Source: Vicinamibacterales bacterium
GTDB lineage: Bacteria > Acidobacteriota > Vicinamibacteria > Vicinamibacterales > SCN-69-37
NCBI GenBank assembly: GCA_035550595.1
Contig: DASZOV010000096.1
Coordinates: 76,602 to 140,601 of the forward strand
Reading direction: 5' to 3'
Length of the DNA stretch: 64,000 nt
Part shown: in pieces, positions 35,992-56,904 of the stretch
How positions within the stretch are numbered: position 1 is the stretch's first letter
Layout of the letters: the number at the start of each line of letters is the position of its first letter
The notes under the pieces: model-generated
Seen by the model: the letters and a program-made list of their open reading frames with translations, nothing else
What the model was told of the DNA's origin: nothing
Databases searched by the model: none
Position numbers and translations under genes: made by a program

Positions 35992-37572
35992 ATGCGGAGG
36001 CCGAAATGGGATAGCGCGTACCTCGCGAGGAGAGTCTCCGGCCTGATCCTGGTCCTGCTGATGGCCGTGGGCGTCCGGCTGGCGCATGCGCAGCCGGCGT
36101 CGCCCTCCCGGCCGAACGTGCTGTTCATCGTCTCGGACGACCTGAATGATGACATCGGCGCCTGGGGCCACCCGATCGTCCAGACGCCAAACCTCGACCA
36201 CTTGGCCGCGCGCGGCGTGCGGTTCCTCCGCGCGTACACGCAGTACGCGCTCTGCAACCCGAGCCGCGCGTCGTTCATGACCGGGCTGCGGCCCGACACG
36301 ACCGGCGTCTACGATCTGCGCACCCACTTCCGGACGAACGTGCCGGACGTCGTCACGCTGCCGCAGATGTTCCGCCACGCCGGCTATTTCGCGGCGCGCG
36401 TCGGCAAGATCTATCACTACGGCGTGCCGTCGGATATCGGCACGAGCGGACTCGACGACCCGGCGTCCTGGGACGTGGTCGTCAACCCGCACGGCGTGGA
36501 CAAAGACGAAGAGGAGCCGCGGCTGACCTTCGCGGGGCCCTCGCGCGCGCTCGGTTCCTCGCTTTCATACTACGCCTCGCCGGCACCCGACGAGGCGCAC
36601 ACCGACGGCAAGGTGGCGACCGAGGCGATCCGGCTCCTCGAGCAGCACAAGGACGCGCCGTTCTTCCTGGCCGTCGGCTTCTATCGCCCACATTGTCCGT
36701 ACATCGCGCCGCAGAAGTACTTCGACCTGTATCCGTCGCTCGACGACATCCCGGTCGCCGAGTACTCCGACTTGCTCCTGCGCGAGTCGCCGACGGCCTT
36801 GCACGGCATCGTCTGGGACGTCCCCGAGCAGGAGCAGCGGGAAGCCATCCGCGCCTACTATGCGGCGATCAGCTTTATGGACGCGCAGGTTGGCCGCGTG
36901 CTCGGCGCGCTCGATCGTCTCGGACTCGCCGACAACACCGTCGTCGTCTTCATGAGCGACCACGGCTATCACCTCGGCGATCACGGCGGCCTGTGGATGA
37001 AGCAGAGCTTGTTCGAGCGTTCGACGCGCACGCCCGTGATCGTCGCCGGGCCTGCCGTCGCCGCCAAGGGGCAGGCGTCTCGCCGCATCGTCGAGCTACT
37101 CGACATCTATCCGACGCTCGCCGCGCTCACCGGCGTGACGCCGCCGGCGGGCTTGCAGGGACGTTCACTCGCGCCGCTCCTTCGCGATCCGAACACCGCA
37201 TGGAACTTCGGCGCGTTGAGCGAAGTGCGGCGTCCGCTTGCGTCCCAGAGTGGCCGAGCCGCGGCCGGCGCCAGACAAGGCGCGCCAGCGACATCGGCGG
37301 CGGCCGGCCGTCGCGGCGGAACCGGCCGCGGTCGAGGCGCGGTCGCGGTCGACCAGGGCTACAGCCTGCGCACGGAGCTGTATCGGTACATCGAGTGGAA
37401 CGATCGGGCTGGCGGAGAAGAGCTGTTCGACGAGATCAACGATCCCGGCGAGGTGCGGAACCTCGCGGGCGAAACGTTCTATACCGACGTGCTCCAGCGG
37501 ATGCGTGGGCTCATGGCGGAGGCGCGCGCGTCGACGCCGGCACGCGCGACCGCTCGGGGGACTCGGCCATGA
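35992..37572 (+). CDS. Cys-type sulfatase (iduronate-2-sulfatase-like)
   Basis: AGGAGG lies 5 nt before the ATG. Signal peptide ...VRLAHAQ. Motifs are NVLFIVSDDLNDD and the formylglycine motif ALCNPSRASFMTG. An RG-rich insert (GRRGGTGRGRG) lies near the C-terminus. Confidence 0.85.
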   Translation: MRRPKWDSAYLARRVSGLILVLLMAVGVRLAHAQPASPSRPNVLFIVSDDLNDDIGAWGHPIVQTPNLDHLAARGVRFLRAYTQYALCNPSRASFMTGLRPDTTGVYDLRTHFRTNVPDVVTLPQMFRHAGYFAARVGKIYHYGVPSDIGTSGLDDPASWDVVVNPHGVDKDEEEPRLTFAGPSRALGSSLSYYASPAPDEAHTDGKVATEAIRLLEQHKDAPFFLAVGFYRPHCPYIAPQKYFDLYPSLDDIPVAEYSDLLLRESPTALHGIVWDVPEQEQREAIRAYYAAISFMDAQVGRVLGALDRLGLADNTVVVFMSDHGYHLGDHGGLWMKQSLFERSTRTPVIVAGPAVAAKGQASRRIVELLDIYPTLAALTGVTPPAGLQGRSLAPLLRDPNTAWNFGALSEVRRPLASQSGRAAAGARQGAPATSAAAGRRGGTGRGRGAVAVDQGYSLRTELYRYIEWNDRAGGEELFDEINDPGEVRNLAGETFYTDVLQRMRGLMAEARASTPARATARGTRP

Positions 37573-38942
37573 CGCCGCACATGGATCGATCGGACGATCG
37601 CGCGTCCAACCCAGCCGCGTCGGCGCGTGGCGCCCGGCCGGGCGTCCACGTCATGGCCAAGCCGGTCGGCCCGATCTGCAACCTCGACTGCAAGTACTGC
37701 TTCTATCTCGAAAAGGAGCGGCTGTATCCGGGCGCGCCCGCGTGGGCGATGTCCGATGACGTGCTCGAGACGTTCATCCGCCAGTACATCGACGTGAACG
37801 ACGCACCGGTCGTGTCGTTCACCTGGCAAGGCGGAGAGCCGACGCTCCTCGGCGTCGACTATTTCCGCCGCGTGGCCGCGCTGCAGGCGACGTACGCCAA
37901 CGGCAAGACGATCCAGAACGCGTTCCAGACCAACGCCGTGCTCATCGACGACGAGTGGGCGCGATTTTTCAAAGAGCACGACGTCCTCGTCGGCGTGTCC
38001 ATCGACGGGCCGCGCGACGTCCACGACGCTTACCGCGTCGACAAGGGCGGCCAGCCGACGTTCGACAAGGTCATGCGGGGGATCGACGTGCTCAACCGGC
38101 ACGGCGTCGCCTTCAACACGCTGACGACCGTGCACCGCGTGAGCGCCGAGCACCCACTCGAGGTCTACCGCTTCCTCAAGGCGCATGGCAGCGGCTACAT
38201 GCAGTTCATCCCAATCGTCGAACGAACGTCTCGGTCGGCGACGCGCGACGGGCTGACGCTCGTGTCGCCCGATTTCGACGGCCGCGCCGGCGTGACGCCC
38301 TGGTCGGTCGAGCCGCAGCAGTTCGGCGAGTTCCTCTGCGCGATCTTCGACGAATGGGTTCGGCACGACGTCGGCCGGTACTTCGTCCAGTTGTTCGACA
38401 TCTGCCTCGAGATGTGGACCGGGCTCGAGGCGAGCCTCTGCGTCTTTCGCCGCACGTGCGGCGGCGCGCTGGCGCTCGAGCACTCCGGGGACCTGTACTC
38501 CTGCGATCACTACGTGTATCCCGAGAACCGGCTCGGCAACATCATGGACGCGCCGCTGGACTCGCTCGCGCGCTCGGCGGCGCAGCAGGCGTTCGGCGAG
38601 GCGAAGGAAGCCGCGCTGCCACGGTACTGCCGCGAGTGCGACGTCCGCTTCGCCTGCAACGGCGAGTGCCCGAAGCATCGGTTCCTGACGACGCCGGACG
38701 GCGAGCCGGGACTGAACTATCTGTGCGCGGGCTACAAACGATTTTTCCGTCACGTCGATCGACCGATGCGGTTCATGGCTGGCGAGCTCGCGGCTGGCCG
38801 CGCGCCGGCGCACGTGATGCGCTGGATGGCCGAACAGGATCTGCACGCCGCGTTCGCGACCACGGGCCGCAACGATCCGTGTCCGTGCGGCAGCGGCCGC
38901 AAGTACAAACAGTGTCATCTGAGGCCCCAGCCGCCGGCATGA
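37569..38942 (+). CDS. Anaerobic sulfatase-maturating enzyme (radical SAM/SPASM) with a C-terminal SEC-C zinc motif
   Basis: The ATG overlaps the sulfatase stop (ATGA). Radical SAM motif is CNLDCKYCFY. SPASM Cys clusters are CVFRRTCGG...YSCDHYVY and CRECDVRFACNGECPKH. The tail is DPCPCGSGRKYKQCH. Confidence 0.85.
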   Translation: MTPHMDRSDDRASNPAASARGARPGVHVMAKPVGPICNLDCKYCFYLEKERLYPGAPAWAMSDDVLETFIRQYIDVNDAPVVSFTWQGGEPTLLGVDYFRRVAALQATYANGKTIQNAFQTNAVLIDDEWARFFKEHDVLVGVSIDGPRDVHDAYRVDKGGQPTFDKVMRGIDVLNRHGVAFNTLTTVHRVSAEHPLEVYRFLKAHGSGYMQFIPIVERTSRSATRDGLTLVSPDFDGRAGVTPWSVEPQQFGEFLCAIFDEWVRHDVGRYFVQLFDICLEMWTGLEASLCVFRRTCGGALALEHSGDLYSCDHYVYPENRLGNIMDAPLDSLARSAAQQAFGEAKEAALPRYCRECDVRFACNGECPKHRFLTTPDGEPGLNYLCAGYKRFFRHVDRPMRFMAGELAAGRAPAHVMRWMAEQDLHAAFATTGRNDPCPCGSGRKYKQCHLRPQPPA

Positions 38943-38968
38943 CGAGCGTGCGCAGGGCGATGAGAGCG

Positions 38969-39007: not shown

Positions 39008-39072
39008 GGTCGTGGCGCCTTCGGCGCGTCTTTCAGGCTTGAAACACACTTCAAGCATTCAGGAGTAGACCG

Positions 39073-40701
39073 ATGAGTGATTCACGGGTGACGCGTCGAG
39101 GATTTCTGGAGCTGTCGGGCGGCGCGTTGCTGGGTGGCGCGCTGACCGGCGGCGAGGCAGGAGCGGCCGCGGCGGCTCGTGATCAGGCGGCATCGCCGGG
39201 CACGGCGCTCACGCGGCGGCCGAACCTCATCCTGTTCGTGTCCGACGAACTGAGGGCCGACAGCCTCGCCTGCTACGGTAATCCCGTCACGCGGACGCCG
39301 AACTTCGACCGCCTCGCCGCCGACGGCGCGAGGTTCTCGAACTGCCACGTGCAGTATCCCGTGTGCGGCGCGTCGCGATGCAGCCTGCTGACCGGATGGC
39401 CGACGAGCGTCCGCGGTCATCGCAGCCTCTACTACTTCCTGCGGCCGGAAGAGCCGAACCTGTTCCGCTATCTGAAGCAAAGTGGATACGACGTCTTCTG
39501 GTACGGCAAGAACGACGCGCTCAGCGCCGAGGTGTTCTACGACAGTCTGACCGAATGGTCGGCAACGGGCGACACCAGCGGCGCCCGCGGCGGCGGTGGC
39601 GGTGGCGGTGGACAGGCTGGTCCACCCGCGAACGGGCCGATCACGTTCCTGACGTCCGCCAGCGGTGACCGCCGCAACGGGCACGACTACGCGCTCGTGC
39701 GCTCGGCGATCCAGATTCTGGAGCGCAAGGAATCCGACCGGCCCTTCTGCCTCTTCCTCGCCATGAACGAGCCGCATCCGCCGTACTCGGCGCCGGCCGA
39801 CTTCCATCGCATGTACTCGCCGGCCGACGTGCCCGCGCCGATCCCGCGCACGCTGCCGAAGCGGCCGAACTTCCATCAGGCGATTCGCGACGCCTGCCGC
39901 TTGCAGAACGTGCCCGAGTCGACCTTCCGCGAGATCAAGGCCGTCTATTACGGTCAGGTCAGCTACGCCGACTGGGTGCTCGGCGAATTGCTCGAGGCCG
40001 TCGAACGTACGAACCACGCCGACGACACCGCGATCTTCTGCCTGTCGGATCACGGCGATTACACGGGCGACTACGGGCTCGTCGAGAAGTGGCCGGCCGG
40101 TCTCGAGGACGTACTCACGCACGTGCCGCTCATCGCGCGCGTGCCCGGCGGCGCGAGAGGCGTCGTCGCCGACGACATGGTGGAGCTCTACGACGTCATG
40201 GCGACGTGCCTCGATCTGGCCGGCGTGCCCGCCAGGCACACGCACTTCGCGCGCAGCCTCCGATCACAGCTCGCCGGCGGCCCGGGCGATCCGCAGCGCG
40301 CGGCGTTCGCCGAAGGGGGATACAACGTCTACGAACCGCAGTGTTTCGAGCCGACGGGGCTCGGCGGCTGGTACGCGGCGAAAGTGAACCTGCAGAACGA
40401 ACACCCGGAGACGATTGCGCGGGCCGCGATGGTCCGCACGCGCGAGGCGAAGCTCGTCGTCCGGCCGAACGGCCAGAACGAGCTGTATCGCTACGACACC
40501 GATCCGCAGGAACGGGAGAACCTGTACGGCGAGGGCGGCACGGCCACGCTCCAGGCTGCGCTGCACGAGCGGCTGCTCCACTGGTACGTCAATACGACCG
40601 GCATCGCGCCGTTCGAAAAGGATCAGCGCAATCCGCCGCCGTTCTACGTCACGCGGACGCCGCCTCCGGCCGACTGGCAGCGGACACTGCTCGATCGCTG
40701 A
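39073..40701 (+). CDS. Cys-type sulfatase with a twin-arginine signal
   Basis: AGGAG RBS. The Tat motif is TRRGFLELSGGALLG. Motifs are NLILFVSDELRAD and the variant active-site motif PVCGASRCSLLTG. A poly-Gly insert (GARGGGGGGGQ) is present. Confidence 0.8.
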   Translation: MSDSRVTRRGFLELSGGALLGGALTGGEAGAAAAARDQAASPGTALTRRPNLILFVSDELRADSLACYGNPVTRTPNFDRLAADGARFSNCHVQYPVCGASRCSLLTGWPTSVRGHRSLYYFLRPEEPNLFRYLKQSGYDVFWYGKNDALSAEVFYDSLTEWSATGDTSGARGGGGGGGGQAGPPANGPITFLTSASGDRRNGHDYALVRSAIQILERKESDRPFCLFLAMNEPHPPYSAPADFHRMYSPADVPAPIPRTLPKRPNFHQAIRDACRLQNVPESTFREIKAVYYGQVSYADWVLGELLEAVERTNHADDTAIFCLSDHGDYTGDYGLVEKWPAGLEDVLTHVPLIARVPGGARGVVADDMVELYDVMATCLDLAGVPARHTHFARSLRSQLAGGPGDPQRAAFAEGGYNVYEPQCFEPTGLGGWYAAKVNLQNEHPETIARAAMVRTREAKLVVRPNGQNELYRYDTDPQERENLYGEGGTATLQAALHERLLHWYVNTTGIAPFEKDQRNPPPFYVTRTPPPADWQRTLLDR

Positions 40702-40744: not shown

Positions 40745-43006
40745 TCACCGCGCGAGGTCGACCATCCAGATCGCTTCGGATACTTCGGTGATCGGCAGCG
40801 CGACGCTGCCGTCGGTCACCGACATCTGGATTTGTTCGTTGTAGTTGACGCGGAAATCCGGGCCGTCGAAGTGCGTGACCTGGAACGACGGCCCGACGGG
40901 CACGCCGGCCTGCGCGTCGAATCGGCGTCCCCAAAGATTCCACGCGCCCGTGCGGTTCGACAGGAAGTACACGGCGCGGCCGTCGGGCGACCAGCGCGGC
41001 TTGGTGTCGTGCGCGAGGCCTTCGGTGACGGCGACCGCCGGGCCGCCCTCGACCGGCATCACGTAGACCATCGAAGGCCGGCCGTCTCCCATCGCGAGAA
41101 AACTCATCCACTGTTTGTGCGGCGACACGCGCGCCGCGTAGAGATTGCGCGCCGGGTCCTGCGCCAGCACCCGCGGCCGCGACGGTCCCGTGGCGCCGAC
41201 CGGCACGGCGCAGAGCGCGATTCGCCGCGAGGCACCCAGGCAGCCGACGATGATGTTGTTGCCGTCGGGCATCCAGTCGTAGAACTGCGTCAGCCCGCGC
41301 GTCTGCGGCAATACCTGGTTGACCGCATCGCTCGCGTGCACGAGGACGACGGCTGAGTCGGACGAGTCGGCGGCGTCGCCGCGGAGGTAGGCGAGCCGGA
41401 AGCCATCCATGGACCACTTCGGCTGCAGAATCGCGCCGCGTTCTTCGATCGCCGTCAACTGATTGCGTCCGGTCACGACCTCGCGCACCCACAGCTCGTC
41501 GCGCCCACGCCGCACGGCGCGATAGGCGACCCGGGAGCCATCGGGCGCCATGTCGAGGACCGACGCATTGACGCCGAACGGCGTGAGCGGTTTGCCGCGT
41601 CCCAGGATTTCGCCGCGGCGCGGATCGAAGGGCAGCGACCAGATGCGTGTTTCGGTGTCGCCCTGCCCGAAGGCCAGACGGCGGCCGTCGGGCGACAGCG
41701 CAATCCCGTGTTTGTGACCGGTCGCCGCGGTCACGCGAAACGGCCCGGCGACCCAGCGTCCCGACGACGCCGCGACGTCGATACGCCACATCGAGTCGCC
41801 GTCGGCGTTCGCGCTCAGGAAGTACAGATGCGTGCCGTCAGGCGACCAGGTGAAGTCCGACAGCGCCACGCGCGTCGCTGCAAGCCGGTCGCGGACGGCC
41901 GGCGCGACGTCGACCTTGCGGACCGCGCCCGACGGCGCGTCCATCGTCCAGAAGCTCCAGCCGAGCGTTCCGTGCAGACCGTAGATCGACACGCGGCCAT
42001 CGGGTTGCCACGTGGCGTACGCCTGGGTGAAGTGCGACATCGCCTCGGGCTGCACCTCGACCGGCTGTCCGCCTCGCGCCGAGACGACGAAAAAGCGCGG
42101 CCGGCCCATGACGGTCGGCTCCGACAGCAGCAGGGTCGCGCCGTCGGGCGACCACTGAGGGTGTGATCCCATCGTCGAAATCAGCCGTTCGACGCCGCCC
42201 GTTGCCGGAATCGTGAAGATGCCGCCGCCACTGCGCTCCGATCGGAACGCGATGGTCTGTCCGTCAGGTGACCAGGCCGGGTCTGAATCCTGCGCGGCGC
42301 CTGTCGTCAACTGCACGGGTGATGTCTCGCCGATGGCCTGGCGCCAGATGTCGAGATTGCCGCCGCGGTTGGAACTGAAGGCAATGACGCGGCCATCGGG
42401 CGACCAGGACGGATCCATGTCGACGCTGCCGGCCGAGGTGAGCTGCGTCACGCGCGCCAGTTCCGGATCGCGCGCGGACCGCGTCGACGGCCGCGCCAGC
42501 CAGGCACCGCTCACGACGACCACGACCGTGGCCACGGCCACCAGGGACGTCCATTGCGACGGCGGGCGCGTTGGCGGCACGGCCGTTGGCGCGATCGTGT
42601 CCTCGCGCGCCTCCGTGTTGGCGTCGTCCGCTGGCGCGTCATGCGCCGCGGCCGCCGAGGCGTCATCGGGCGCGTCGACGGTGACCGGCACGGCCAGACG
42701 ATAGCCCTTGCCCGGCACGGTCATGAGGTACTCGACGTCCGGGTCGAGCTGGTGAAACGTCTTGCGAAGCGTGGAGACGTGCCGCGCGAGGTTGTTTTCC
42801 TCGACGAAGACGTTCGGCCACACCTTCTTCAGCAGATCGTCCTTCGAGACCGTTCGCCCTTCCGCCTCGACGAGCGCAACGAGGACGCGGAGCGCGCAGG
42901 GCGTCACGTGAACCGGCTGGCCGTCCGAGGTCAGGCTGCTGCCATCGGCGGCCGCAACGAACCGTCCGAACCGGAAGGACAAAGGTGCAATGGCATCGTC
43001 GATCAT
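40745..43006 (-). CDS. Membrane-anchored winged-helix (OmpR/CadC-type) regulator fused to TolB-like beta-propeller repeats
   Basis: GGGAGG RBS. The N-terminal trans_reg_C domain reads FRFGRFVAAA....L...G..V.VTPCALRVLVALVEAEGRTVSKDDLLKKVWP...VEENNLARHVSTLRK...GKGYRL. One TM (WTSLVAVATVVVVVSGAWL) follows. Repeated SPDG/WSPDG PD40-type blades are present. Confidence 0.8.
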   Translation of the reverse strand: MIDDAIAPLSFRFGRFVAAADGSSLTSDGQPVHVTPCALRVLVALVEAEGRTVSKDDLLKKVWPNVFVEENNLARHVSTLRKTFHQLDPDVEYLMTVPGKGYRLAVPVTVDAPDDASAAAAHDAPADDANTEAREDTIAPTAVPPTRPPSQWTSLVAVATVVVVVSGAWLARPSTRSARDPELARVTQLTSAGSVDMDPSWSPDGRVIAFSSNRGGNLDIWRQAIGETSPVQLTTGAAQDSDPAWSPDGQTIAFRSERSGGGIFTIPATGGVERLISTMGSHPQWSPDGATLLLSEPTVMGRPRFFVVSARGGQPVEVQPEAMSHFTQAYATWQPDGRVSIYGLHGTLGWSFWTMDAPSGAVRKVDVAPAVRDRLAATRVALSDFTWSPDGTHLYFLSANADGDSMWRIDVAASSGRWVAGPFRVTAATGHKHGIALSPDGRRLAFGQGDTETRIWSLPFDPRRGEILGRGKPLTPFGVNASVLDMAPDGSRVAYRAVRRGRDELWVREVVTGRNQLTAIEERGAILQPKWSMDGFRLAYLRGDAADSSDSAVVLVHASDAVNQVLPQTRGLTQFYDWMPDGNNIIVGCLGASRRIALCAVPVGATGPSRPRVLAQDPARNLYAARVSPHKQWMSFLAMGDGRPSMVYVMPVEGGPAVAVTEGLAHDTKPRWSPDGRAVYFLSNRTGAWNLWGRRFDAQAGVPVGPSFQVTHFDGPDFRVNYNEQIQMSVTDGSVALPITEVSEAIWMVDLAR

Positions 43007-43272: not shown

Positions 43273-43827
43273 GTGAACACACGAAGGCTCGGCGCCGAGG
43301 CGTGCGCCATGGCCGCCGCGCTGGCGACGATCGTCTGGCTCGCGCGGCCGGTACCAGTGGCAGCACAGGGCGCAGGTGGCGTCGCGGGCCGATGGACCTT
43401 TACGTTCAGCCCGCCCGCGAGAGCCGGCGGAGCGCGTGGACGCGGTGCGGCACGCGGTGCCGGCCGCGCGACGACGCCAGGACGAGCGGGGGCCTCGGCC
43501 GCGAGAGGACGCGCAGCCGGCGCAGCGTCTGACCGCCAGGCATTCCTCGACGTGAAGCCGGGACCGGCCGGCACGATCACGGGCACCGTGGACCTGAATC
43601 CGGGCGGCCGTGGCGCGCCGGGCAACAACCCCGATCGGCCGGTGGAGATCTCGGACGGCCACGTCGACGGCGCGCACCTGACCTTCAGCACCTGGTCGAT
43701 GGACGGCTATCGCAACCGCATCCAATTCGACGGCGTCGTCGAGGGCGACGTCCTTCAGCTCACGCTGCACCGCGCGACGCCGACCGGCGTCGAGACGACG
43801 CACGTGACCGCCCGCCGGACGAGGTGA
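43273..43827 (+). CDS. Hypothetical secreted protein with an Arg/Gly/Ala-rich low-complexity segment
   Basis: The GTG lies 5 nt after GGGAGG. Signal peptide ...WLARPVPVAAQGA. The sequence continues GRWTFTFSPPARAGGARGRGAARGAGR...GTITGTVDLNPGGRGAPGNN...ISDGHVDGAHLTFS...FDGVVEGDVLQLTL. It ends 3 nt before the arylsulfatase start. Confidence 0.55.
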   Translation: MNTRRLGAEACAMAAALATIVWLARPVPVAAQGAGGVAGRWTFTFSPPARAGGARGRGAARGAGRATTPGRAGASAARGRAAGAASDRQAFLDVKPGPAGTITGTVDLNPGGRGAPGNNPDRPVEISDGHVDGAHLTFSTWSMDGYRNRIQFDGVVEGDVLQLTLHRATPTGVETTHVTARRTR

Positions 43828-45600: not shown

Positions 45601-45708
45601 CGGGGCGCGCGCATGCGCCCGCCATCGGGCGACGTGCCGGCGACGTCACGTCGAGATCGTTGGTCCGCTGAACGTCCGTCACCAGATGAACGCAGAGGAG
45701 GTGTTTCG

Positions 45709-48700: not shown

Positions 48701-49446
48701 ACGACCACCAGAGCACGGCGCCGCGGTTCGATCATCTGCCGGACGGCACGTTCGTCGTCCGCGGCGATCAGGCCGACGCCGACCGGCTGCTCGGAACAGC
48801 CGTCGACACCGTGCACCTCATGCGTGCCAATTTCGTCTGGGATCTGCCGGACATCGACGGCACGACGGGCGTCAAGCGGACGCTGGGGTGGATTGCCAAC
48901 GACTGGCAGGTCACCGGCATCTGGACGGGACGCACCGGATCGCCGTACGCCGTCAACTTCAGCTATCAGAGCGGCGGCAGCAGCCTGAACCTGACGGGAT
49001 CGCCGGACTATCCGGCGCGCGTCAACGTCGTCGGCGATCCGGGCAACGGCTGCAGCGACGACTTATATCGGCAGTTCAACGCGGCGGCCTTCGCGGGGCC
49101 GTCCGCGGGGAGCGTCGGGCTCGAGTCAGGCAACGCGTATCTGCGCGGGTGCTTCTCGAGCGTGCTGGACATGTCGATCATGCGGCGCTTCCGGCTCGGC
49201 GGCACGCGTTCGGTCCAGTTCCGCGTCGACCTGTTCAACGCGCCGAACCTGGCGGGCATCACGTCGCGGAACGCGACGATGAACCTGACGAATCCGCTGG
49301 CGTCGACGTCGGTGACGAACCTGCCGTTCGACGCCAGCGGGAACCTCGTCGAGGCCCGGTCGCTGCCGAAGAACGCGGGCTTCGGCGTGGCGAACGGCTA
49401 TCAGTCGCCACGGACGATTCAACTGCAGTTGCGATTCGAGTTCTGA
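45709..49446 (+). CDS. TonB-dependent receptor-like outer-membrane protein with a CarboxypepD_reg domain (paralogue of 154..3825)
   Basis: GAGGAGG RBS. Signal peptide ...LASPAIAQ. TVLGTVKDTQGGVLPGATVVLISETRGT follows. Long blocks are near-identical to receptor 1 (GYQAEYGRASGLQVTSVTKSGSNQFHGSLYDVERNSDWNSNSR). It ends LRFEF. Confidence 0.85.
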   Translation: MWSNQRREYRAIRMSLVVTLWALVAALASPAIAQVTTTVLGTVKDTQGGVLPGATVVLISETRGTQTAPAVTNDAGDFVLPSVVPDTYTLQVEMPSFKTLKRTGLIIGADPRVVVGTLTLEVGGTTEVVNVTAASPLIQAASGERSFTVDSTQVDNLPIANRNFTSLAGLAPGVDTSGATNVTRVGGGGDTNIVMDGVSTSSPGNNAIMIRLNTESVAEVRVVTSGYQAEYGRASGLQVTSVTKSGSNQFHGSLYDVERNSDWNSNSRTNILNGDPKPVAKERDFGYSIGGPIGRPGGNNKLFFFFSHEIEPRTAGNNVVRYRMPTALERAGDFSQSTDNNGNPYPYIKNPALSGACSAASQAACYADGGVLGRIPASDLYAPGLALLNMFPMPNIDNVPAGQNYNFQLTRPTEKATGYQPVLRMDYQPMPAFRATYRIALQGQGADQVFNGTLPGFNDTRMSHPTITTQSMSATWSIRPTVTIEASYGRTRNELSGCALGGGDRPGPTFCTAGFPASALANPANAGIDGIPLIYPDARVVNPDFYTYAAMQQMNLPIWDGTQILLPPQFQYGSRVANSPPGNLLTSFYNTSLVQDFAASVTIVKGRHTIKAGIQNLAQFQAQITGGAGGAIGTLSFSQDTPGVNPYDTSFGFANAAIGTFSSYAQASQFSEYNSAIRNTDAYVQDNWKMNAHVTMDYGMRFVHEVPEHDKFGRASNFLPELWDPSVAPTLYAPGCANGTYPCSGTNRQAMNPATGQFLGPGSSAAIGTIVPGSGDELNGLRQLGQGIVDTGYIWPAVAFSPRFGIAYDVTGEQRVVLRGGAGLFFDRTAANQTRAAGSNPPISQNVTLRYGTLQNLASGLAITGAPNIGGAWVYHSDDLPSSTQWNAGVQIALPFDIALDTSYVGQHAFAIPVAANINAVDFGAAFLPENQDPTLAASATPGATAVSTDLLRAMPGFGNVVQNQQTGWRTYHSLQFSVNRRFRHGLAFGFNETWSLYDHQSTAPRFDHLPDGTFVVRGDQADADRLLGTAVDTVHLMRANFVWDLPDIDGTTGVKRTLGWIANDWQVTGIWTGRTGSPYAVNFSYQSGGSSLNLTGSPDYPARVNVVGDPGNGCSDDLYRQFNAAAFAGPSAGSVGLESGNAYLRGCFSSVLDMSIMRRFRLGGTRSVQFRVDLFNAPNLAGITSRNATMNLTNPLASTSVTNLPFDASGNLVEARSLPKNAGFGVANGYQSPRTIQLQLRFEF

Positions 49447-49574: not shown

Positions 49575-51275
49575 ATGAACGCCAACAAGACACGCAAAGG
49601 GATCAGCCGGCGCGCATTTCTCGCCGCGACCGTGGCCGCGCCGACCGCCGCGACGGCATTGACCGCGGCTTCCGCCCAACGGCCGGCCGGCTCGGCGGCG
49701 CCGGCGGTCGTCAGTCGCGGCCGCCGGCGCAACGTCCTCTTCATCTCGACCGACGACATGTGCAACCGCCTGGGGTGCTACGGCGTGCCGGTCAAGTCGC
49801 CCAACCTCGATCGGCTCGCGCGCTCGGGGATCCGCTTCGATCGTCACTACTGCCAGTTCCCCTTGTGCGGTCCGTCGCGCACGTCGCTCATGACCGGCCT
49901 CGCGCCCGACACGACGAAGGCGTGGGATCTCCGCACGGACTTCCGTCAGACGATCCCGCAGGTCGTCACGCTGTCGCAGCTCTTCCAGCAGAACGGCTAC
50001 TTCACGGCGCGTTCGGGGAAGATCTACCACTACAACAACCCGAGTGAAATCGGCACGCCGGGATTCGACGATCCCGCCAGTTGGCAGCAGGTCTCCTATC
50101 CGGCGGGATTCGATCGCACGCACGACGAAGGGCTCGTGCAGTTCTTCGCGCGCTCGGGAGGGGAAGGTGGTGCGGGCCGCGGACGAGGCGCGGGACGCGC
50201 TCGAGGCGCCGGTCAGGGACGTGGCGGCCGGGGCGGTCCAGCGGCACGTCCGCAGGACGGTCTGATGGAACCGACATGGCGACATGGCGGCACGGGGCCG
50301 AGCGGGACGATCCGCATCGCGCAGGACGGCTGCACGCCGACGCTGCCGTTCAGCCAGAACGGCGATCTGGGCGTGGCCCTGGCGGGACATCCGTCGGAAG
50401 GGAGTGACCAGGTCATCACCGACTACATGGTCGCCGAGGCCGCGATCGCGATGATGGCCGAGCACCGGAACGAGCCGTGGTTCATCGGGGCCGGCTTCTT
50501 CCGGCCCCACGTGCCGTTCATCGTGCCGTCGGCGTACTACGACCTGTACGACGTGAACGACATCGAGGTGCCGCCGTTCGATCCGTCCGAGCTGAGCGTG
50601 GCGCCGCCGATCGCCTATTCGTCCACGAATCCGAACGAGGGTATGACGCCACAGCAGCATCGCGAATGCCTGCGTGGGTACTACGCGGCCATCAGCTTCG
50701 TCGACGCGCAGGTCGGACGCCTGCTCGACGCGTTGCAGCGCCTCGGCCTGGCCGAGGACACGACCGTCGTCTTCTGGGCAGATCACGGCTACATGGTCGG
50801 CGAGCACGGCCAGTGGCAGAAGATGAAGCTGTTCGAGCCGTCCGCGCGCGTGCCGTTCATCATGGCGGGCGCGGGTGTGCCGACGACGGGCGGCGTGTGT
50901 CGGCGCACGTCGGAGCACCTGGATGTCTATCCGACGCTCGCCGATGTGTGCGGCCTGCAGGGCGCGCCGGCGAATCTGCACGGGCGCAGTCTGATGCCGC
51001 TGCTCAGCGATCCGAATGCGGCGTGGGATCGTCCCGCGGTCTCCCAGGTAACCCGCAACACGGCGTCGGGGCCGACGATGGGTTATTCGCTGCGGACCGA
51101 GCGCTATCGCTACACGATGTGGGCGGGCGGCGCGGAAGGGGAGGAGCTCTACGACTACGAGACCGATCCACGCGAGCTTCGCAACCTCGCCGGCGATACG
51201 GGCTCAGAGACGTTGAAGTCCCAGTTGCGCGCGCGGCTCGAGACGATTGCCACGTCGCGCGGCATGACGGCGTAG
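49575..51275 (+). CDS. Cys-type sulfatase (iduronate-2-sulfatase-like) with a twin-arginine signal
   Basis: GGGAGG RBS. The Tat motif is ISRRAFLAATVAAP. Motifs are NVLFISTDDMCNR and the FGly motif PLCGPSRTSLMTG. A ~100-aa insert contains GGAGRGRGAGRARGAGQGRGGRGG. Confidence 0.85.
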   Translation: MNANKTRKGISRRAFLAATVAAPTAATALTAASAQRPAGSAAPAVVSRGRRRNVLFISTDDMCNRLGCYGVPVKSPNLDRLARSGIRFDRHYCQFPLCGPSRTSLMTGLAPDTTKAWDLRTDFRQTIPQVVTLSQLFQQNGYFTARSGKIYHYNNPSEIGTPGFDDPASWQQVSYPAGFDRTHDEGLVQFFARSGGEGGAGRGRGAGRARGAGQGRGGRGGPAARPQDGLMEPTWRHGGTGPSGTIRIAQDGCTPTLPFSQNGDLGVALAGHPSEGSDQVITDYMVAEAAIAMMAEHRNEPWFIGAGFFRPHVPFIVPSAYYDLYDVNDIEVPPFDPSELSVAPPIAYSSTNPNEGMTPQQHRECLRGYYAAISFVDAQVGRLLDALQRLGLAEDTTVVFWADHGYMVGEHGQWQKMKLFEPSARVPFIMAGAGVPTTGGVCRRTSEHLDVYPTLADVCGLQGAPANLHGRSLMPLLSDPNAAWDRPAVSQVTRNTASGPTMGYSLRTERYRYTMWAGGAEGEELYDYETDPRELRNLAGDTGSETLKSQLRARLETIATSRGMTA

Positions 51276-51301: not shown

Positions 51302-52537
51302 TCACTTCCAGAAATACGTCGCGACGATGCGAGGCGGACCGGCCACGTCGCCGGTGACCGTCGTCGCGATGACGAGCTCGACGTTCTGTCGGTCCCATCC
51401 GGCTGGCGCGGTTGTCGCCAGCCGGTCGAGATATTCCCGCGTCGTCAGCAGCTCTCCGGCGGCCGAGGTGCCCCAGCGCCGAATGCCGCCGAAGCATACG
51501 ACGTGTTGTCCGGACGCGGGATCGCGCACGCGCGCGATCAACGCGAAATCTTCGACAACGGCTTCCGGCGTGACGGACGAATCGAACCGCGTGGCCCAAC
51601 CCGGCGCGTCAGGATGGTCGTTGTCCACGATGCGTCCTCGGTTCGACCGATCGAGGCGGAAGCGCAGGCCGTCGGTGATCTTGCGTGTCCATGGATTGTT
51701 GAACGCGCCGATGGCCACCATCGGCTGAGCGCGCAAGTCGGCGAAGTCGAGGGCGTCGGTCGACTTGACCTCGAACGGGCGCGTCTCGCGGTCGAGGAAT
51801 CCGGCGACGCGTGCGGCGGCCCTGGCCGCGTGGACCGTCACCGTGTCGCGCACGCCGGGCATCGCCGGGCCGACGACGACCGCGACGGTTCCGGGAGAAG
51901 TGAGCACCGGTCTCCAGAAACGTTCGATGGAATTCGTCGCCGATGCCGCGTGTACGAGAAACGCCGTCGTCACGCCAACGATGGCGCAGACGCCGGCTGC
52001 GACGATCAATCGATGACTCCATCGCGGCGTTCGACCGGCTGCCGTCCACGCGTCAGGCGGCGGCGTGCGGACGGCCGCGGTTTGCGCGTCTCGCGACGTC
52101 GCGGCCGGTGGCTCGGCGTCAGGCGCCGTCGTTGGGCGCATCGGGTTCGTCGGATGGCGTTGCGATTCGCCTGCCAAGAAGCTGTCGAGGTCCGCGCGCT
52201 GAATCTGCGTGATGTCCCCGGTGAACTGATAGCCGCGGCCCGATACGGTCAGGATGTAGTCGTGTTCCCGATCGTGCTGGCGCATCGCCTGGCGGAGCAC
52301 CGAGATGCTGCGATCCAGGTTGTTCTCCTCGACGATGACGTCCGGCCACACGATCCTGAAGATGTCGTTCCGCTCGACGAGCGAGCCGTGCCGCTCGACG
52401 AGCGTCATGAGCACGGCGAACGCTTTCCGCGAGATGGCAAGGGCCGTGTCGCCGTAATAGAACGTCTGCAGGGCCGGATCGATCGTGAACGATCCGAAGC
52501 GGTAGAGGACATCGGACGCGGTAATGGGACGCTTCAT
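51302..52537 (-). CDS. Membrane-anchored winged-helix (OmpR/CadC-type) regulator with an uncharacterised periplasmic domain
   Basis: YRFGSFTIDPALQTFYYGDTALAISRKAFAVLMTLVERHGSLVERNDIFRIVWPDVIVEENNLDRSISVLRQAM...SGRGYQF is followed by one TM (LIVAAGVCAIVGVTTAFLV) and a ~230-aa C-terminal domain. I chose the internal ATG of ORF 51302..52600. Confidence 0.75.
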   Translation of the reverse strand: MKRPITASDVLYRFGSFTIDPALQTFYYGDTALAISRKAFAVLMTLVERHGSLVERNDIFRIVWPDVIVEENNLDRSISVLRQAMRQHDREHDYILTVSGRGYQFTGDITQIQRADLDSFLAGESQRHPTNPMRPTTAPDAEPPAATSRDAQTAAVRTPPPDAWTAAGRTPRWSHRLIVAAGVCAIVGVTTAFLVHAASATNSIERFWRPVLTSPGTVAVVVGPAMPGVRDTVTVHAARAAARVAGFLDRETRPFEVKSTDALDFADLRAQPMVAIGAFNNPWTRKITDGLRFRLDRSNRGRIVDNDHPDAPGWATRFDSSVTPEAVVEDFALIARVRDPASGQHVVCFGGIRRWGTSAAGELLTTREYLDRLATTAPAGWDRQNVELVIATTVTGDVAGPPRIVATYFWK

Positions 52538-52573
52538 GGTTCTGACCCGGTTTCTGTGTTCGTCATCGCGTCG

Positions 52574-52630
52574 AAAAAAAAAAAGGCCGTACATGCACAA
52601 AGGCCCGGCACCTTGCGGTTCCGGGCCTTT
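52574..52630 (-). terminator. GC hairpin (AAAGGCCCGG-12 nt-CCGGGCCTTT) plus an 11-nt homopolymer (T11 on the minus strand)
   Basis: Stem arms at 52599-52608 and 52621-52630. An A11 run lies at 52574-52584 on the plus strand. The feature is ~200 nt downstream of the octahaem gene and 37 nt upstream of the regulator ATG at 52537. The T-run is not adjacent to the stem, so terminator function is uncertain. Confidence 0.35.
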
Positions 52631-52832: not shown

Positions 52833-55220
52833 TCATCGCGGCGCCGCACGCAGTTCGTCGGCCAGCGCCCGTGCGTCGCGGTCCTGTGGATCCAGTTCGA
52901 TGAGACGGTTCGCATGCCGTCGCGCGTCGTCGAAGTGGCCGGCATCGCGCTCGATCGCGGCAAGCGCCAGCAGAACATCCCGATCGTCAGGCTGATGGGC
53001 GAGCGCGGCCTCGAGCTCGCGAATCGCCGCGGTTGATTGCCCCGCGCCGTTCAGCGCCAGCGCATACGCGTAACGGAAGCGGACATCGGACGGCGCGAGC
53101 GCTGCCGCGCGTTGGAACGCCGTGAGCGCGTCGGAGGCACGATGCGATCGCGTCAACGAGAGCGCGAGCGCGTACTGGAGGTCCGCGTCCTTCGGAAGGC
53201 GCGTCACGCCAGCGCGAAGCGCGGTTTCGGCGCCGGGCTCGTCACCTCGCGCCCGTAGGAGTTCGGCGAGGTTGACGTATGCCGGCGCGAAGTCCGGTGC
53301 CATGGCAAGCGCCGCGCGATATTCGCGCTCCGCTTCGTCCGGTCGGCCGCTGTCGGCGAAGAAGACGCCGAGCGAGAGCCGGTGCTCGGGCCGATCGGCG
53401 TTGAACCGCTCGGCCGCGACGAGCTCCTCGGCCGCGCGATCGAACGCGCGCCGGTCGTCGGGGGAAAGCTGAGCCGAGGCCGCTGCGAGTTGACGCGCCG
53501 CGAGAATGCGCACCGATCGGATTGGATCGCGGAGGAGCGGCGCGACGCGCGAGACGCGATCGGCCGGCGCGACGGTGTCGAACGTGTGAAGCGCGGCCTG
53601 GCGCACCATCGCGTCCGTATCAGCGAGCGCTCCGGCCGCGACACTGGCTGAGCCCGGTGCGTTCGCGAGCCGCTCGAGCGCCGACGCGCGCACGATAGCC
53701 GGTTCGCCTGCCGATGACGCCACGCGCGCAACGGCGGTCGCGGCGCCCGCGCGGTGCGTGTCGAAATCAGCGAACGCCTGCGCGAAGTCCTGAAATCCTG
53801 TTGGGTCGTGTCCGTACCAGCCGCGAACGGCATCAGCCGCCCAGGCCGCGGTCCGGTCGCGATGACAGCCGTTGCACGCGTTGGGTGATCCCGTGCTGGC
53901 AGTGAGATCGGGTCGCGGCACGCGCAGGCTGTGATCGCGCCGCTCGTCGATCTGCATGTAGGTCCGCGCCGGCATGTGGCACGCGACGCACGACGCTCCC
54001 GGGCTCGTCGCGGCGTGATGATGATGCGTCGGACTGTCGTAACGCGTCGCCACGTGACACGTGGTGCAGAGCGCGTTGCCCTCGCGCCGAATCTTGCCGC
54101 TGTGCGGTTCGTGACAGTCGCTGCACGTCACGCCGGCGTTCGCCATGCGGCTCTGGAGAAACGACGCGTAGATGTAGACTTCGTCGCGCTGCTGTCCGTC
54201 CGGGAAATACAAGCCGGATTGGATCGTCGCCGGCTCGTAGAAGTCGCCAAACGCGTCGCCTGCGACGTACCCATCGGCGAACTGCGCGCGGCGCGAGTGA
54301 CAGACGGCGCACGTCTCGATTTCGCGTGACGTGGTCCTTGGCGCACTCCGCGCGGGCTGGCCGGTCGTCGGGTTGACCGCCCACTGCACGCCCGCTCGTT
54401 CGGTGAGATGGATCGTCAAGCCGTTGTCGGTCGCTGCCGTCGCGCCCCGTTCGTTCTTCGCGCGCGCGGCCCAGGCAACGTGTGCCGATCCTGGCCCATG
54501 ACACGCCTCGCACGTCACGTTCACCGCGGACCACGTCGTCTGGAAGGTGTCAGTCGTCGCGTCGTAGCGCTTGCGGACGTTCGTCGAGTGACAGTCCGCG
54601 CACATGAAGTTCCAATTCTGCTCACGGCCCGTCCAGTGCAGCGGATCCGTGTGATCGATCGACTCGTTCGGATAGAGCGAGAACCAGCGCTGGCCGCCCG
54701 CGGCTTTGGGCCGGCTGTCCCACGCGATCGACAGCGCCTGCAACCGGCCGCGCGGCTGCTCGAGGAGATACTGCTGCAGTGGAAACACGCCGAACGTGTA
54801 CCGAACGGCGAAATCCCGCAGCGTCCCGTCTGCGTCGTCGGTGTGGACCCAGTAGCGGCCGTCGCGCTGGCTGAACGTCGTATTGACGTTGCCGCGCCGG
54901 AACGAACTGCCGTCGAAAAGGCCCGTGACCGTCGTCGCGTTCGGCGTGGCCATCGCTTCGGCGTGCTGCGACCCGTGCCACGCGTCATAGGCCTCGCGAT
55001 GGCAGCCCGCGCACGCTTCGGCGCCGACGTAGGTCGCGTCGCGGTGTGGAACCGTTGGCGGCGTGCTGGCCGTGCGGTCGTTTCCCCGCGCCGCGCGCCA
55101 TCGCCATGCGCCAACCGCCGCGAGGCCCACGACGAGCCCCACCGCGACAACGACCGGCCAATGCCACGAATGACCGCCCGTCCGGGCGGGACGGCCCGGA
55201 CGACGGCGCGAGCCACTCAT
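52833..55220 (-). CDS. Octahaem c-type cytochrome fused to HEAT-like and TPR repeats
   Basis: N-terminal TM. Eight CxxCH motifs are present (CAGCH, CADCH, CEACH, CAVCH, CSDCH, CTTCH, CVACH, CNGCH). The C-terminal ~330 aa carry TPR repeats (AEREYRAALAMAPDFAPAYVNLAELL..., ALALNGAGQSTAAIRELEAALAHQPDD...). Confidence 0.8.
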   Translation of the reverse strand: MSGSRRRPGRPARTGGHSWHWPVVVAVGLVVGLAAVGAWRWRAARGNDRTASTPPTVPHRDATYVGAEACAGCHREAYDAWHGSQHAEAMATPNATTVTGLFDGSSFRRGNVNTTFSQRDGRYWVHTDDADGTLRDFAVRYTFGVFPLQQYLLEQPRGRLQALSIAWDSRPKAAGGQRWFSLYPNESIDHTDPLHWTGREQNWNFMCADCHSTNVRKRYDATTDTFQTTWSAVNVTCEACHGPGSAHVAWAARAKNERGATAATDNGLTIHLTERAGVQWAVNPTTGQPARSAPRTTSREIETCAVCHSRRAQFADGYVAGDAFGDFYEPATIQSGLYFPDGQQRDEVYIYASFLQSRMANAGVTCSDCHEPHSGKIRREGNALCTTCHVATRYDSPTHHHHAATSPGASCVACHMPARTYMQIDERRDHSLRVPRPDLTASTGSPNACNGCHRDRTAAWAADAVRGWYGHDPTGFQDFAQAFADFDTHRAGAATAVARVASSAGEPAIVRASALERLANAPGSASVAAGALADTDAMVRQAALHTFDTVAPADRVSRVAPLLRDPIRSVRILAARQLAAASAQLSPDDRRAFDRAAEELVAAERFNADRPEHRLSLGVFFADSGRPDEAEREYRAALAMAPDFAPAYVNLAELLRARGDEPGAETALRAGVTRLPKDADLQYALALSLTRSHRASDALTAFQRAAALAPSDVRFRYAYALALNGAGQSTAAIRELEAALAHQPDDRDVLLALAAIERDAGHFDDARRHANRLIELDPQDRDARALADELRAAPR

Positions 55221-55233
55221 GACTGGAGAGTGT

Positions 55234-56829
55234 CTAGCGGATGCTCTCCTCCGGCAACTCCTGACCGATGCCCTCGTCGAGCGGCATCTTGTCGGGCCAG
55301 GCGCCGAGCGCGATGAGCTGCTGGTCGAGCTCCGCGTGCATCTGCTCGACGCGATAGCGATAGCGCGGGTCGTTGATGAGGTTGACGATCTCGTCCGGAT
55401 CGTCGGTCAGATGGTAGAGCTCGGCCATGTGCGGCTTCGGCGAGTTCGGATACCGCACGTATTTCCATTCCGACGTGCGAAGCGCGCGGACGTTCGGCGT
55501 GTAGGGAAACTGCTTCTCGTAGTTGTACATGTAGACGTAGCTCGTCCGCCACGTCGAATCCGGATGTCCCTGCGCGATGCTCTTCCACGATCGGCCCTGC
55601 ATCTTCGGGCCGGCCGGCAGCCCGACCATGTCGAGAATCGACGGCGCGAAGTCGGTCGTCAGCACCATCTGGTCCACGACGCGCGGCTGGGTCGGCGGCG
55701 TGAGGCCGGGATAGCGCACGACGAGCGGCACGCGGATCGTCGGCTCGTGCGCCGTCCGCTTGTCGACCATGCCGTGCTCGCCATCGAGCAGCCCGTGGTC
55801 CGACGTGAAGATGAAGATCGTGTTGTCGAGCTCGCCGAGTTGCTGGAGCAACGCGTAGATCCGCCCCACGCTGTCGTCCACGCTCAGGATGGTCCGCCAG
55901 TACGAGCGGATCATCTCCTCGAAGGCCGTGACGCCTTCGGGACTGCGATCCGGGAAGTTCTTCCGATAGGTGAACAACGGCCCGTAGATGCCGTGCCACG
56001 TGGGCAGCCGCTCCTTGTACCACTCCGGCTTGTCGTCGAGCATGAAGGCCGACGGCGGATAAGGGATGTGCACGTCGGCGAAGGCGTTCTTGTACTTGTC
56101 CTCCGGCACGTAGAAGCTGTGCGGCGCCTTGTGGCCGATCATGATCGCCCACGGCTTGCCGTCCGTACGGCCGCGGATCCACTGTTCGGCGAGGTCGGTG
56201 ACGATCGTCGTGTAATAGCCCGGGATGACGTGGCGCTCGCCGCCGTTGATGCGCCACTCGGTGCCGTAGTAATCGCCCTGTCCGCGATGCGTGGCGAAGT
56301 AGTCGAAGCCCGGGCGTGGCGCGTCGTTGTCTTCGCCCATGTGGTACTTGCCGACGTACGCGGTCTCGTATCCGATCTTCTGCAGATCCCGCGGCCAGGT
56401 CTCCGCGTCGTCGGGGAACTCGGTGAAGTTGTTCGTGACGCCGTGGATGTGCGCGTACTCGCCGGTCTGGATCGTCGCGCGGCTCGGCGAGCACAGCGCC
56501 GTCGTCGCAAACGCGTTGCGGAAGTACACGCCCTCGTGCCCGAGCCGATCGATGTTCGGCGTCTTGAGCGGGCCGCTCTTCGGGTTCAGCGAGATCGCGT
56601 CCCACCGCTGATCGTCGGTCAGCACGAAGACGATGTTGGGGTGCGCCGGCACGACGGGCGTTGCCTTGCGCGCGCAGGCGCCCATCGTCAGCGCGGCGGC
56701 GGCGATTGCCAGCATGCCGAGGCGACCGACGGCACGCGGGACCGGCCGTCCGGCATCACCGGAGCGGCCGGGGCGTGTCATCTGCAGAGACAACGGAGAT
56801 CGACGAGGGGCAGGGTGCGGGAGAGACAT
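55234..56829 (-). CDS. Cys-type sulfatase (N-acetylglucosamine-6-sulfatase-like), probable lipoprotein
   Basis: Lipobox-like ALTMGAC. Motifs are [13 protein letters not shown] and the FGly motif [13 protein letters not shown], with a TSDHG motif also present. The start could be a downstream Met. It ends 13 nt before the octahaem gene. Confidence 0.85.
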
Positions 56830-56876
56830 GTCGCCATGACCGTACCGTCTTCCTCGCGGGCCGGCAACATGTTTGA

Positions 56877-56904
56877 TTTATAGGCGCCCGCGAATTCTTT
56901 ACAA
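56877..56904 (-). promoter_or_regulatory. Strong sigma70-like promoter (TTGTAA-16 nt-TATAAA) for the sulfatase/octahaem operon
   Basis: The minus strand reads cTTGTAAagaattcgcgggcgccTATAAAtc. This is an AT-rich island in a GC-rich intergenic gap, ~50 nt upstream of the ATG at 56829. Confidence 0.45.

Follow-up and report, generated by a model that had tools for sequence, protein, structure and literature searches.

A clade-restricted, sulfatase-rich locus with its own maturase and a TonB-type receptor in a Vicinamibacterales bacterium

Five genes for formylglycine-type sulfatases lie within 21 kb of a 64,000-nucleotide stretch of DNA (here called the window) from a Vicinamibacterales bacterium of the phylum Acidobacteriota (GenBank assembly GCA_035550595.1, contig DASZOV010000096.1, positions 76,602 to 140,601 of the forward strand). 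They are accompanied by genes for an anaerobic sulfatase-maturing enzyme (anSME), a TonB-dependent-type outer-membrane receptor, three regulators, a small secreted protein and an octahaem c-type cytochrome with tetratricopeptide repeats (TPR) (Table 1). The locus is a conserved, clade-restricted and uncharacterised local version of the known sulfate-ester and sulfated-glycan utilisation loci, not a new type of system. Its most likely function, to which we give about even confidence, is proposed to be the uptake of sulfated oligosaccharides through the receptor and the removal of their sulfate at several sites in the periplasm.

At a GC content of ~68%, the raw lists of open reading frames (ORFs) in the window contain many spurious frames. 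Third-position GC (GC3) served to select the genes, which were then compared with Pfam and NCBIfam. A preliminary description of the same DNA had listed five sulfatases, a maturase coupled to the first of them, a CarboxypepD_reg receptor, two membrane-anchored winged-helix regulators and a XylR/AraC regulator. All of these were recovered at or near the positions it gave, and PF00884 matches all five sulfatases with 135-213 bits against a cut-off of 25; the small secreted protein and the cytochrome/TPR gene had been overlooked. Several genes of the module are tightly coupled: the ATG of the anSME gene overlaps the TGA of sulf1 (ATGA; GCCATGACGC), the small-protein gene ends 3 nt before sulf3, sulf3 is separated from the receptor gene by 12 nt (longest ORF), and the cytochrome/TPR gene starts 14 bp downstream of sulf5. 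The sulf3-receptor operon begins with the small-protein gene. Scans for promoters and terminators yielded no signal exceeding the shuffled expectation, and no tRNA gene or compositional anomaly marking an island was seen in the window.

Table 1. Genes of the sulfatase locus, in window coordinates.
Gene	Coordinates	Strand	Assignment	Family match
sulf1	35992..37572	+	S1_7-like sulfatase	PF00884 6.8e-48
anSME	37569..38942	+	radical SAM/SPASM anaerobic sulfatase-maturing enzyme with C-terminal SEC-C motif	
sulf2	39073..40701	+	sulfatase without subfamily assignment	PF00884 1.4e-41
wHTH-PD40	40745..43006	-	membrane-anchored one-component-type winged helix-turn-helix (wHTH) regulator	Trans_reg_C + PD40/TolB-like propeller (Pfam)
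small secreted protein	43309..43827	+	predicted avidin/lipocalin-like barrel, without family assignment	
sulf3	43831..45600	+	S1_4-like sulfatase	PF00884 8.9e-63
receptor	45613..49446 (likely start 45709)	+	TonB-dependent-type outer-membrane receptor	CarboxypepD_reg + OMP_b-brl_4, 1.7e-125
sulf4	49575..51275	+	S1_7-like sulfatase	PF00884 2.8e-39
wHTH2	51302..52600	-	second membrane-anchored winged-helix regulator (CadC-like)	Trans_reg_C 2.9e-14
cytochrome/TPR	52833..55220	-	octahaem c-type cytochrome/TPR protein	cytochrome + TPR families (Pfam)
sulf5	55234..56829	-	S1_11-like sulfatase	PF00884 1.2e-54, SGSH_C 3.2e-32
XylR/AraC regulator	56914..58182	-	XylR/AraC regulator	Peripla_BP_3 9.3e-36, PBP1_XylR 2.9e-11, HTH_18 2.3e-16

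All five sulfatases are of the Cys type. When tested for the core S1 motif, C/S-X-P/A-X-R followed by xxLxTG, sulf1 (CNPSR), sulf2 (CGASR), sulf4 (CGPSR) and sulf5 (CSPSR) fit the first element, while sulf3 (CSTTR, residues 113-117, window positions 44167-44181) deviates from it with Thr in place of Pro/Ala and an intact downstream AALLTG. The CSTTR sequence is invariant in the sulf3 orthologs of the related loci L001, L002, L049 and L050; CSPxR or CWPTR stands in its place in homologs that are 34-39% identical. The CGASR motif of sulf2 is kept in L001 and L050. Export signals, judged by reading the N-termini in the sequence, are present on all five enzymes as the preliminary description had it: twin-arginine (Tat) signals on sulf2 (RRGFL) and sulf4 (SRRAFL), Sec-like signals on sulf1 and sulf3, and a lipobox-like LTMGAC on sulf5.

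Pairwise identity among the five sulfatases is 24-41%; sulf4 and sulf1 are 41.5% identical over 359 aligned residues, with sulf4 carrying an insertion of ~100 aa. Subfamily labels were taken from the nearest solved structures as a proxy for SulfAtlas phylogeny, and for sulf1, sulf3, sulf4 and sulf5 the E-values of these best relatives are 10-40 orders of magnitude ahead of those of the next subfamily. The nearest Protein Data Bank (PDB) entry is 6HHM for both sulf1 (4.9e-76; human iduronate-2-sulfatase, IDS, follows at 5e-62) and sulf4 (4.9e-72, in two stretches). Sulf3 is closest to 7ALL (1.7e-84) and matches 1HDH, the Pseudomonas aeruginosa arylsulfatase, over its full length (3.6e-82); sulf5 is closest to 5G2V (BT4656; 2.2e-71), then to 7P24 and 7LHA. 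The best match of sulf2 is only 4UPI (1.5e-37), among distant arylsulfatase/phosphonate-monoester-hydrolase-like proteins, and an exact-sequence look-up of sulf2 returned no record. The 7ALL structure comes from the Bacteroides thetaiotaomicron mucin sulfatase set; we take it to be BT4683, and 1HDH to belong to S1_4. Among the reference enzymes, 6HHM is P18_S1_7, an endo-2-sulfo-xylose sulfatase of the Formosa ulvan polysaccharide utilisation locus (PUL), 7LHA is BuS1_11, BT4656 is an S1_11 6S-GlcNAc sulfatase, and BT4683 is an S1_4 endo 3S-Gal sulfatase (subfamilies of the reference entries: PMC9096561, PMC10154612).

These relatives suggest that sulf1 and sulf4 are S1_7-like, sulf3 S1_4-like and sulf5 S1_11-like (6-O-sulfatase type). 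The set appears to be heterogeneous yet complementary, as in glycan loci, rather than made of duplicates, as the low pairwise identities indicate. The preliminary description had considered the substrate not deducible. It is not wholly so, because the nearest relatives of four of the five enzymes are characterised carbohydrate or aryl sulfatases that differ in positional specificity.

The maturase is scored above the cut-offs of two equivalog models (NF010308, 507.6 bits against 484; TIGR03942, 496.5 bits against 349.45) and has the radical-SAM motif CNLDCKYC (CxxxCxxC) together with PF04055 (Radical_SAM) and PF13186 (SPASM). Another ORF considered as the maturase, 37955-39076, was rejected, as it has no Pfam match and lies in the wrong frame; GC3 gives 37569-38942. 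The anSME C terminus (window 38868-38942, residues 434-452) is a SEC-C zinc-binding motif, CPCGSGRKYKQCH (PF02810, 41.7 bits), a motif known from the C terminus of SecA. The tail is also found on the anSMEs of L001, L049 and L050. It is not specific to this locus: all 120 of the 120 best homologs (72-95% identity, including that of Terracidiphilus) have it, which suggests that acidobacterial anSMEs carry it throughout the lineage. It may tie sulfatase maturation to the export machinery; in the library searched, no paper names the SEC-C motif together with sulfatases.

The formylglycine-generating enzyme (FGE) activates sulfatases with CXPXR, and anSME handles the SXPXR and CXAXR types (PMC2459300). 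Judged by these motifs, sulf2 (CGASR) belongs to the CXAXR class served by anSME, and sulf3 (CSTTR) fits neither class. In L001 and L050, the anSME gene lies directly between sulf3 and sulf2. We infer that a dedicated anSME is kept inside the locus because sulf2 and sulf3 are without the FGE-type proline. In this model, the co-encoded anSME would convert all five Cys-type sulfatases to the formylglycine form in the cytoplasm, before their export by Sec or Tat, and would be needed at least for sulf2 and probably for sulf3, since neither has the CXPXR recognised by FGE. Two biochemical questions follow: whether C-S-T-T-R can become formylglycine, and by which maturase, and what the SEC-C tail contributes to maturation before export.

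The receptor gene has its likely start at 45709, after GAGGAGG. Its product shows a strong match to the barrel family PF25183 (OMP_b-brl_4) and to CarboxypepD_reg, and the plug region a weak, partial match to the PqqU plug (21.6 bits); against PDB sequences, including any solved SusC-like structure, there was no match. Orthologs are 90% (L001), 77% (L049) and 74% (L002) identical. A second CarboxypepD_reg receptor of the window, at 145-3825, is 55% identical to that of the island, and receptor homologs of the same divergence (<=56% identity, L003-L017) have no sulfatases within 10 kb. Being of paralog-level divergence, the latter were set aside as synteny evidence.

The small secreted protein (172 aa) is encoded directly upstream of sulf3 in L002, L049, L050 and L054; L001 has a degraded form of it there. 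Its distribution is narrow: only 4 clusters were obtained from 5.8 billion proteins, and an exhaustive profile search yielded 40 representatives. An AlphaFold (AF2) model built from 4 sequences has an eight-stranded up-and-down barrel with a core pLDDT of 80-93, for which Foldseek finds avidins, fatty acid-binding proteins (FABPs) and lipocalins as the nearest, marginal, relatives (E ~1e-3, TM 0.4-0.65). The model hints that the protein is a small-ligand binder, which keeps a non-glycan substrate in play. Residues 39-72 (window 43423-43524), between the first strand and the barrel, form an Arg/Gly/Ala-rich low-complexity stretch that is modelled as disordered; its length varies among the four homologs and is much shorter in L002.

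The cytochrome/TPR protein has eight CxxCH motifs, an N-terminal transmembrane (TM) segment and C-terminal TPR repeats. Together with sulf5 it forms a pair on the opposite strand in the window, in L001 and in L049/L062; in L062 the two genes overlap by 1 nt, and in L063 the pair stands alone. The sulf5 orthologs are 97% (L001), 85% (L049) and ~80% (L063) identical. That the cytochrome/TPR family might be specific to sulfatases was rejected: it is huge, it crosses phyla, and a 58% identical homolog in L064 has no sulfatase neighbour. The link to sulf5 therefore appears to be clade-specific. Upstream of the cytochrome/TPR gene of L063, the sulf5 ortholog (8250-9748) is broken into ORFs of 343 and 144 aa, by a frameshift that makes it a pseudogene or by an assembly error, and no other gene of the module is found within 10 kb.

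Both membrane-anchored regulators have the ToxR/CadC-like layout, with an N-terminal winged helix (Trans_reg_C), a single hydrophobic TM segment and a periplasmic part. In wHTH-PD40, the TM segment spans residues 152-170, the periplasmic part is a PD40/TolB-like beta-propeller, and the NCBIfam matches are CadC/HilA-like and TolB-like; orthologs are present in L049, L054 and the P0006 contig. In wHTH2, the TM segment spans residues 196-214, NCBIfam similarity is of the CadC/HilA type and the periplasmic domain has no family match; in L001 and L050 this gene is divergent from the operon. The XylR/AraC regulator, for which no TM segment is seen and which is taken to be cytoplasmic, joins a sugar-binding periplasmic-binding-protein fold to an AraC helix-turn-helix.

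Conservation of the locus was followed by gene-by-gene tblastn and the called-gene tables of related loci. Scanning a genome collection with the receptor matched only Acidobacteriota, mostly Vicinamibacterales-type metagenome-assembled genomes (MAGs) from soil, and GCA_964544615.1 holds an identical 7.7-kb piece; a metagenome scan with sulf3 gave only short contigs with paralog-level matches and no synteny. Two gene orders are seen. In type A, (sulfatase)-anSME-(sulfatase) is followed by wHTH-PD40 on the minus strand and then by small protein-sulf3-receptor. This order is that of the window, of the L049/L058/L062 lineage (~77% identity) and of the P0006 contig, whose anSME is 88% identical and which shares the same NYN-ankyrin-cytochrome c left flank. 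Type B is found in L001 (~88%) as well as the L050/P0004 contigs; here a minus-strand wHTH2 precedes small protein-sulf3-anSME-sulf2-receptor-sulf4. In L002, the cytochrome/TPR gene adjoins small protein-sulf3-receptor.

The core consists of the small protein, sulf3, the receptor, anSME, sulf5, the cytochrome/TPR protein and one CadC-like regulator; the other members of the module (sulf1, sulf2, sulf4, XylR and the second regulator) are accessory to it or move about within it. Sulf1 is absent from L001 and present in L049, and sulf4, relocated in L049, varies in position between lineages. Persistence of a core through rearrangement is the usual sign of functional linkage. The synteny check across Acidobacteriota proposed in the preliminary description shows such a core, retained in at least four related lineages despite reshuffling and kept together through it; the clustering is therefore functional and not due to chance. 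The suggestion of an acidobacterial-style module stands insofar as the host is an acidobacterium and the module is uncharacterised; it is confined to a narrow clade and is not general among Acidobacteriota, as the sulfatase-free surroundings of the more distant receptors and the orphan anSME of Terracidiphilus indicate.

Further differences between lineages concern the surroundings of the module. A tRNA-Val(CAC) gene stands directly at its left edge in L058 (5702-5777; ~77%-identity lineage). Of this tRNA, the sister contig L059 (221-1754), which matches at 99.9% identity over the module, has in common just the final 46 nt, with a phage-type integrase gene before them. This is the signature of an integrative element inserted at tRNA-Val beside the module; the window, where a tRNA gene is absent, has a different left flank. 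Next to the module in L062 (1-5686) are orthologs of the 145-3825 receptor (70%) and of the DUF7133/cytochrome c/F5-8-type-C protein at 18990-21965 (54%), as well as a second wHTH-PD40 gene. The wider neighbourhood is thus shared but rearranged between the window and L062. The P0013 contig (JGI 3300047160), a further acidobacterial arrangement, carries on one strand, with no glycoside hydrolase (GH) gene, a receptor, a rotamase, HupE/UreJ, DUF3604, two further HupE/UreJ, a SEC-C-tailed anSME and two sulfatase+HEAT proteins.

None of the gene-like ORFs across the 64 kb matched a Pfam family of glycoside hydrolases or polysaccharide lyases (PLs), and SusD was matched by no ORF of the window or of the related loci, in line with the preliminary description, which had pointed to the missing partners. 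The window ORFs without a family assignment are small (172-318 aa), and one of them is barrel-like. For the hypothetical gene at the left flank (34868-35680, minus strand), no family match was obtained and the single-sequence AlphaFold model was unusable (pLDDT 35.6), so that a cryptic enzyme might lie there. SusD is a feature of Bacteroidota, and its absence is expected outside that phylum. The missing SusD is therefore uninformative in an acidobacterium, and sulfatase clusters free of carbohydrate-active enzymes (CAZymes) are already known in Planctomycetes (PMC4807772).

In the function that we favour, sulfated oligosaccharides or glycoconjugate fragments would cross the outer membrane via the TonB-type receptor, and the exported sulfatases, located in the periplasm or at the inner side of the outer membrane, would strip their sulfate. 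The positional split would be 2-O for the S1_7-like sulf1 and sulf4, 6-O for the S1_11-like sulf5 and 3-O/aryl for the S1_4-like sulf3, with sulf2 unspecified; the small barrel and cytochrome/TPR proteins may have roles as well. Two CadC/ToxR-like membrane regulators would sense the periplasm and a XylR-like sugar sensor the cytoplasm, jointly setting expression. Glycoside hydrolases, inner-membrane transport and catabolism would be encoded elsewhere, as is usual in genomes without PUL-organised CAZymes.

Several observations speak for this proposal: the distinct carbohydrate specificities of the nearest characterised enzymes, the core held together in its two gene orders with variable accessory sulfatases, the tight coupling of sulf1/anSME, small protein/sulf3/receptor and sulf5/cytochrome, the anSME gene placed between sulf3 and sulf2, and the XylR/AraC regulator, which is kept in L001 (92%). 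Other observations weigh against it. GH, PL, sugar transporter and sugar catabolic genes are found neither in the 64 kb nor in the orthologous loci, the subfamily labels are proxies, and sulf2 is without an informative relative. XylR is absent from the L062 lineage, where the second wHTH-PD40 regulator stands in its place. Moreover, the invariant core, made of an arylsulfatase-like sulf3 and a predicted small-ligand-type barrel, would fit a small non-glycan substrate equally well.

This last point leads to a serious, if rather unlikely, rival, in which the module scavenges sulfur from small non-glycan organosulfates such as aryl, alkyl, steroid or lipid sulfates. The receptor would import the ester, the small barrel would bind the hydrophobic substrate or its desulfated product in the periplasm, the P. 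aeruginosa arylsulfatase (PAS)-like sulf3 and the other sulfatases would release sulfate, and general transporters would take it up, in functional parallel to the Pseudomonas atsACBR-sftR-atsK-sftP cluster, which also joins an arylsulfatase and a TonB-dependent receptor (PMC3596284). The small protein, sulf3 with its full-length arylsulfatase match and the receptor are the invariant part of the locus, the related MAGs come from soil, and GH, PL and sugar transport genes are lacking. However, the avidin/FABP/lipocalin-type fold match is marginal and comes from a four-sequence model, and sulf1, sulf4 and sulf5 are closest to the carbohydrate-specific S1_7 and S1_11 enzymes. In addition, the regulators are of the sugar-sensor and CadC-like types rather than the LysR/CysB/SftR type, and neither an AtsBC/AtsR-type ABC transporter nor an AtsK alkylsulfatase was found. 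A bolder version, which we regard as speculative and improbable, takes the core (the barrel protein, a sulf3 whose clade-specific CSTTR could be matured only by the co-encoded SEC-C-tailed anSME, and the receptor) as a capture-and-desulfation device for small hydrophobic organosulfates and not for glycans. The sulf5-cytochrome/TPR operon would then couple desulfation to periplasmic redox, giving an undescribed route of ester-sulfate mineralisation in the abundant soil Vicinamibacterales.

It might also be that the sulfatases are functionally independent, share neither substrate nor pathway and were brought together by the high rate of rearrangement and turnover typical of genomes rich in sulfatases, with sulf1-anSME, sulf3-receptor and sulf5-cytochrome as the only true units. 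Gene order does differ among close relatives, which vary in whether they have sulf1, sulf2, sulf4, XylR and either of the two wHTH genes, L063 retains only the sulf5-cytochrome pair, the receptor homologs at <=56% identity (the 145-3825 paralog included) have no nearby sulfatases, and Planctomycete sulfatase clusters show the same turnover (PMC4807772). We nevertheless regard independence as improbable. The same core has been re-assembled in two orders in at least four lineages rather than dispersed, and the anSME gene stays within the cluster in this clade, though it is an orphan in Terracidiphilus. Furthermore, under a Poisson model five sulfatases would very rarely meet by chance within 21 kb: for a whole genome taken to have 7 Mb and 30-120 sulfatases, the probability is ~1e-5 to 1e-2.

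Among the closest known systems are the sulfated-glycan PULs of Bacteroidota, for example those of B. thetaiotaomicron for heparin/heparan sulfate and mucin O-glycans. Common to these and the locus are a TonB-type outer-membrane receptor with an N-terminal CarboxypepD_reg domain, here a putative importer, several exported S1 sulfatases (S1_4, S1_11 and others), envelope-sensing regulators and, as proposed here, dependence on anSME. The locus nevertheless lacks what defines a PUL, namely a SusC/SusD pair and GH/PL enzymes, and it has CadC-like wHTH and XylR-type regulators in place of a hybrid two-component or ECF/anti-sigma regulator. Its receptor is of the OMP_b-brl_4 type, without a sequence match to solved SusC-like structures, and its anSME gene lies inside the locus, whereas in B. 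thetaiotaomicron one anSME gene serves the sulfatases of the organism. Klebsiella atsBA and E. coli aslBA and ydeNM are the classical enterobacterial sulfatase-maturase operons. These likewise couple the gene of a periplasmic sulfatase to that of a radical-SAM anSME, but they are two-gene operons of Ser type or with a single Cys-type enzyme, without a receptor or a multi-sulfatase set, in contrast to the five Cys-type enzymes and the SEC-C-tailed anSME described here.

The Pseudomonas atsACBR-sftR-atsK-sftP cluster resembles the locus in linking a PAS-type arylsulfatase homolog (here sulf3) to a TonB-dependent receptor, in its soil context and in a plausible role in organosulfur mineralisation (PMC3596284). 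Only these two genes are common to both, as the island has no ABC transporter, LysR regulator or TauD-type alkylsulfatase AtsK; its enzymes are predicted to be exported, would depend on anSME and are joined by additional carbohydrate-type sulfatases. Operon-like clusters of dissimilar sulfatases with high turnover have been described in Planctomycetes (PMC4807772). These and other clusters of the Planctomycetes-Verrucomicrobia-Chlamydiae (PVC) group (PMC6388578) are like the present one in having adjacent, dissimilar, exported sulfatases, rapid rearrangement and, in many cases, no CAZyme. They differ from it in that the locus has a central TonB-type receptor, a co-located anSME, an acidobacterial host, a small barrel protein and a cytochrome/TPR partner. 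Moreover, the PVC genomes discussed have FGE genes, with one anSME in addition in the Kiritimatiellales strains.

The module offers a concrete, clonable target for learning which sulfated compounds these bacteria use. Acidobacteriota of the Vicinamibacterales type are common in soil and rarely cultured. Ester sulfates make up a large share of soil organic sulfur (PMC3596284). Only if the substrate or the link to the cytochrome turned out to be unusual would the general picture of sulfatase biology change.

Some observations concern the flanks. The 34868-35680 hypothetical gene also borders the module on its left side in L001 (86%), is absent from the L049 lineage, and has in the P0006 contig (JGI 3300056388) a counterpart that is apparent by gene position and size (223 aa) only. 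At 7436-8239, just upstream of sulf1, the P0006 locus has an extra gene, absent from the window, for a 267-aa protein with Laminin_G_3 (concanavalin-like lectin/glucanase fold); no other domain of carbohydrate-binding type was seen close to the module in any of its versions. Upstream of the island (5340-7859, 12808-13197 and 15839-18916) lie genes for two PadR regulators and for two large permeases of the FtsX/MacB type, one PadR gene directly abutting one permease gene. Downstream (58275-63986) follow SCO1/SenC, a TM protein, an FG-GAP protein, a B12-type radical SAM protein (HpnJ/BchE-like), a DegT aminotransferase and a VTT-domain protein; of these, SCO1 is absent from L001.

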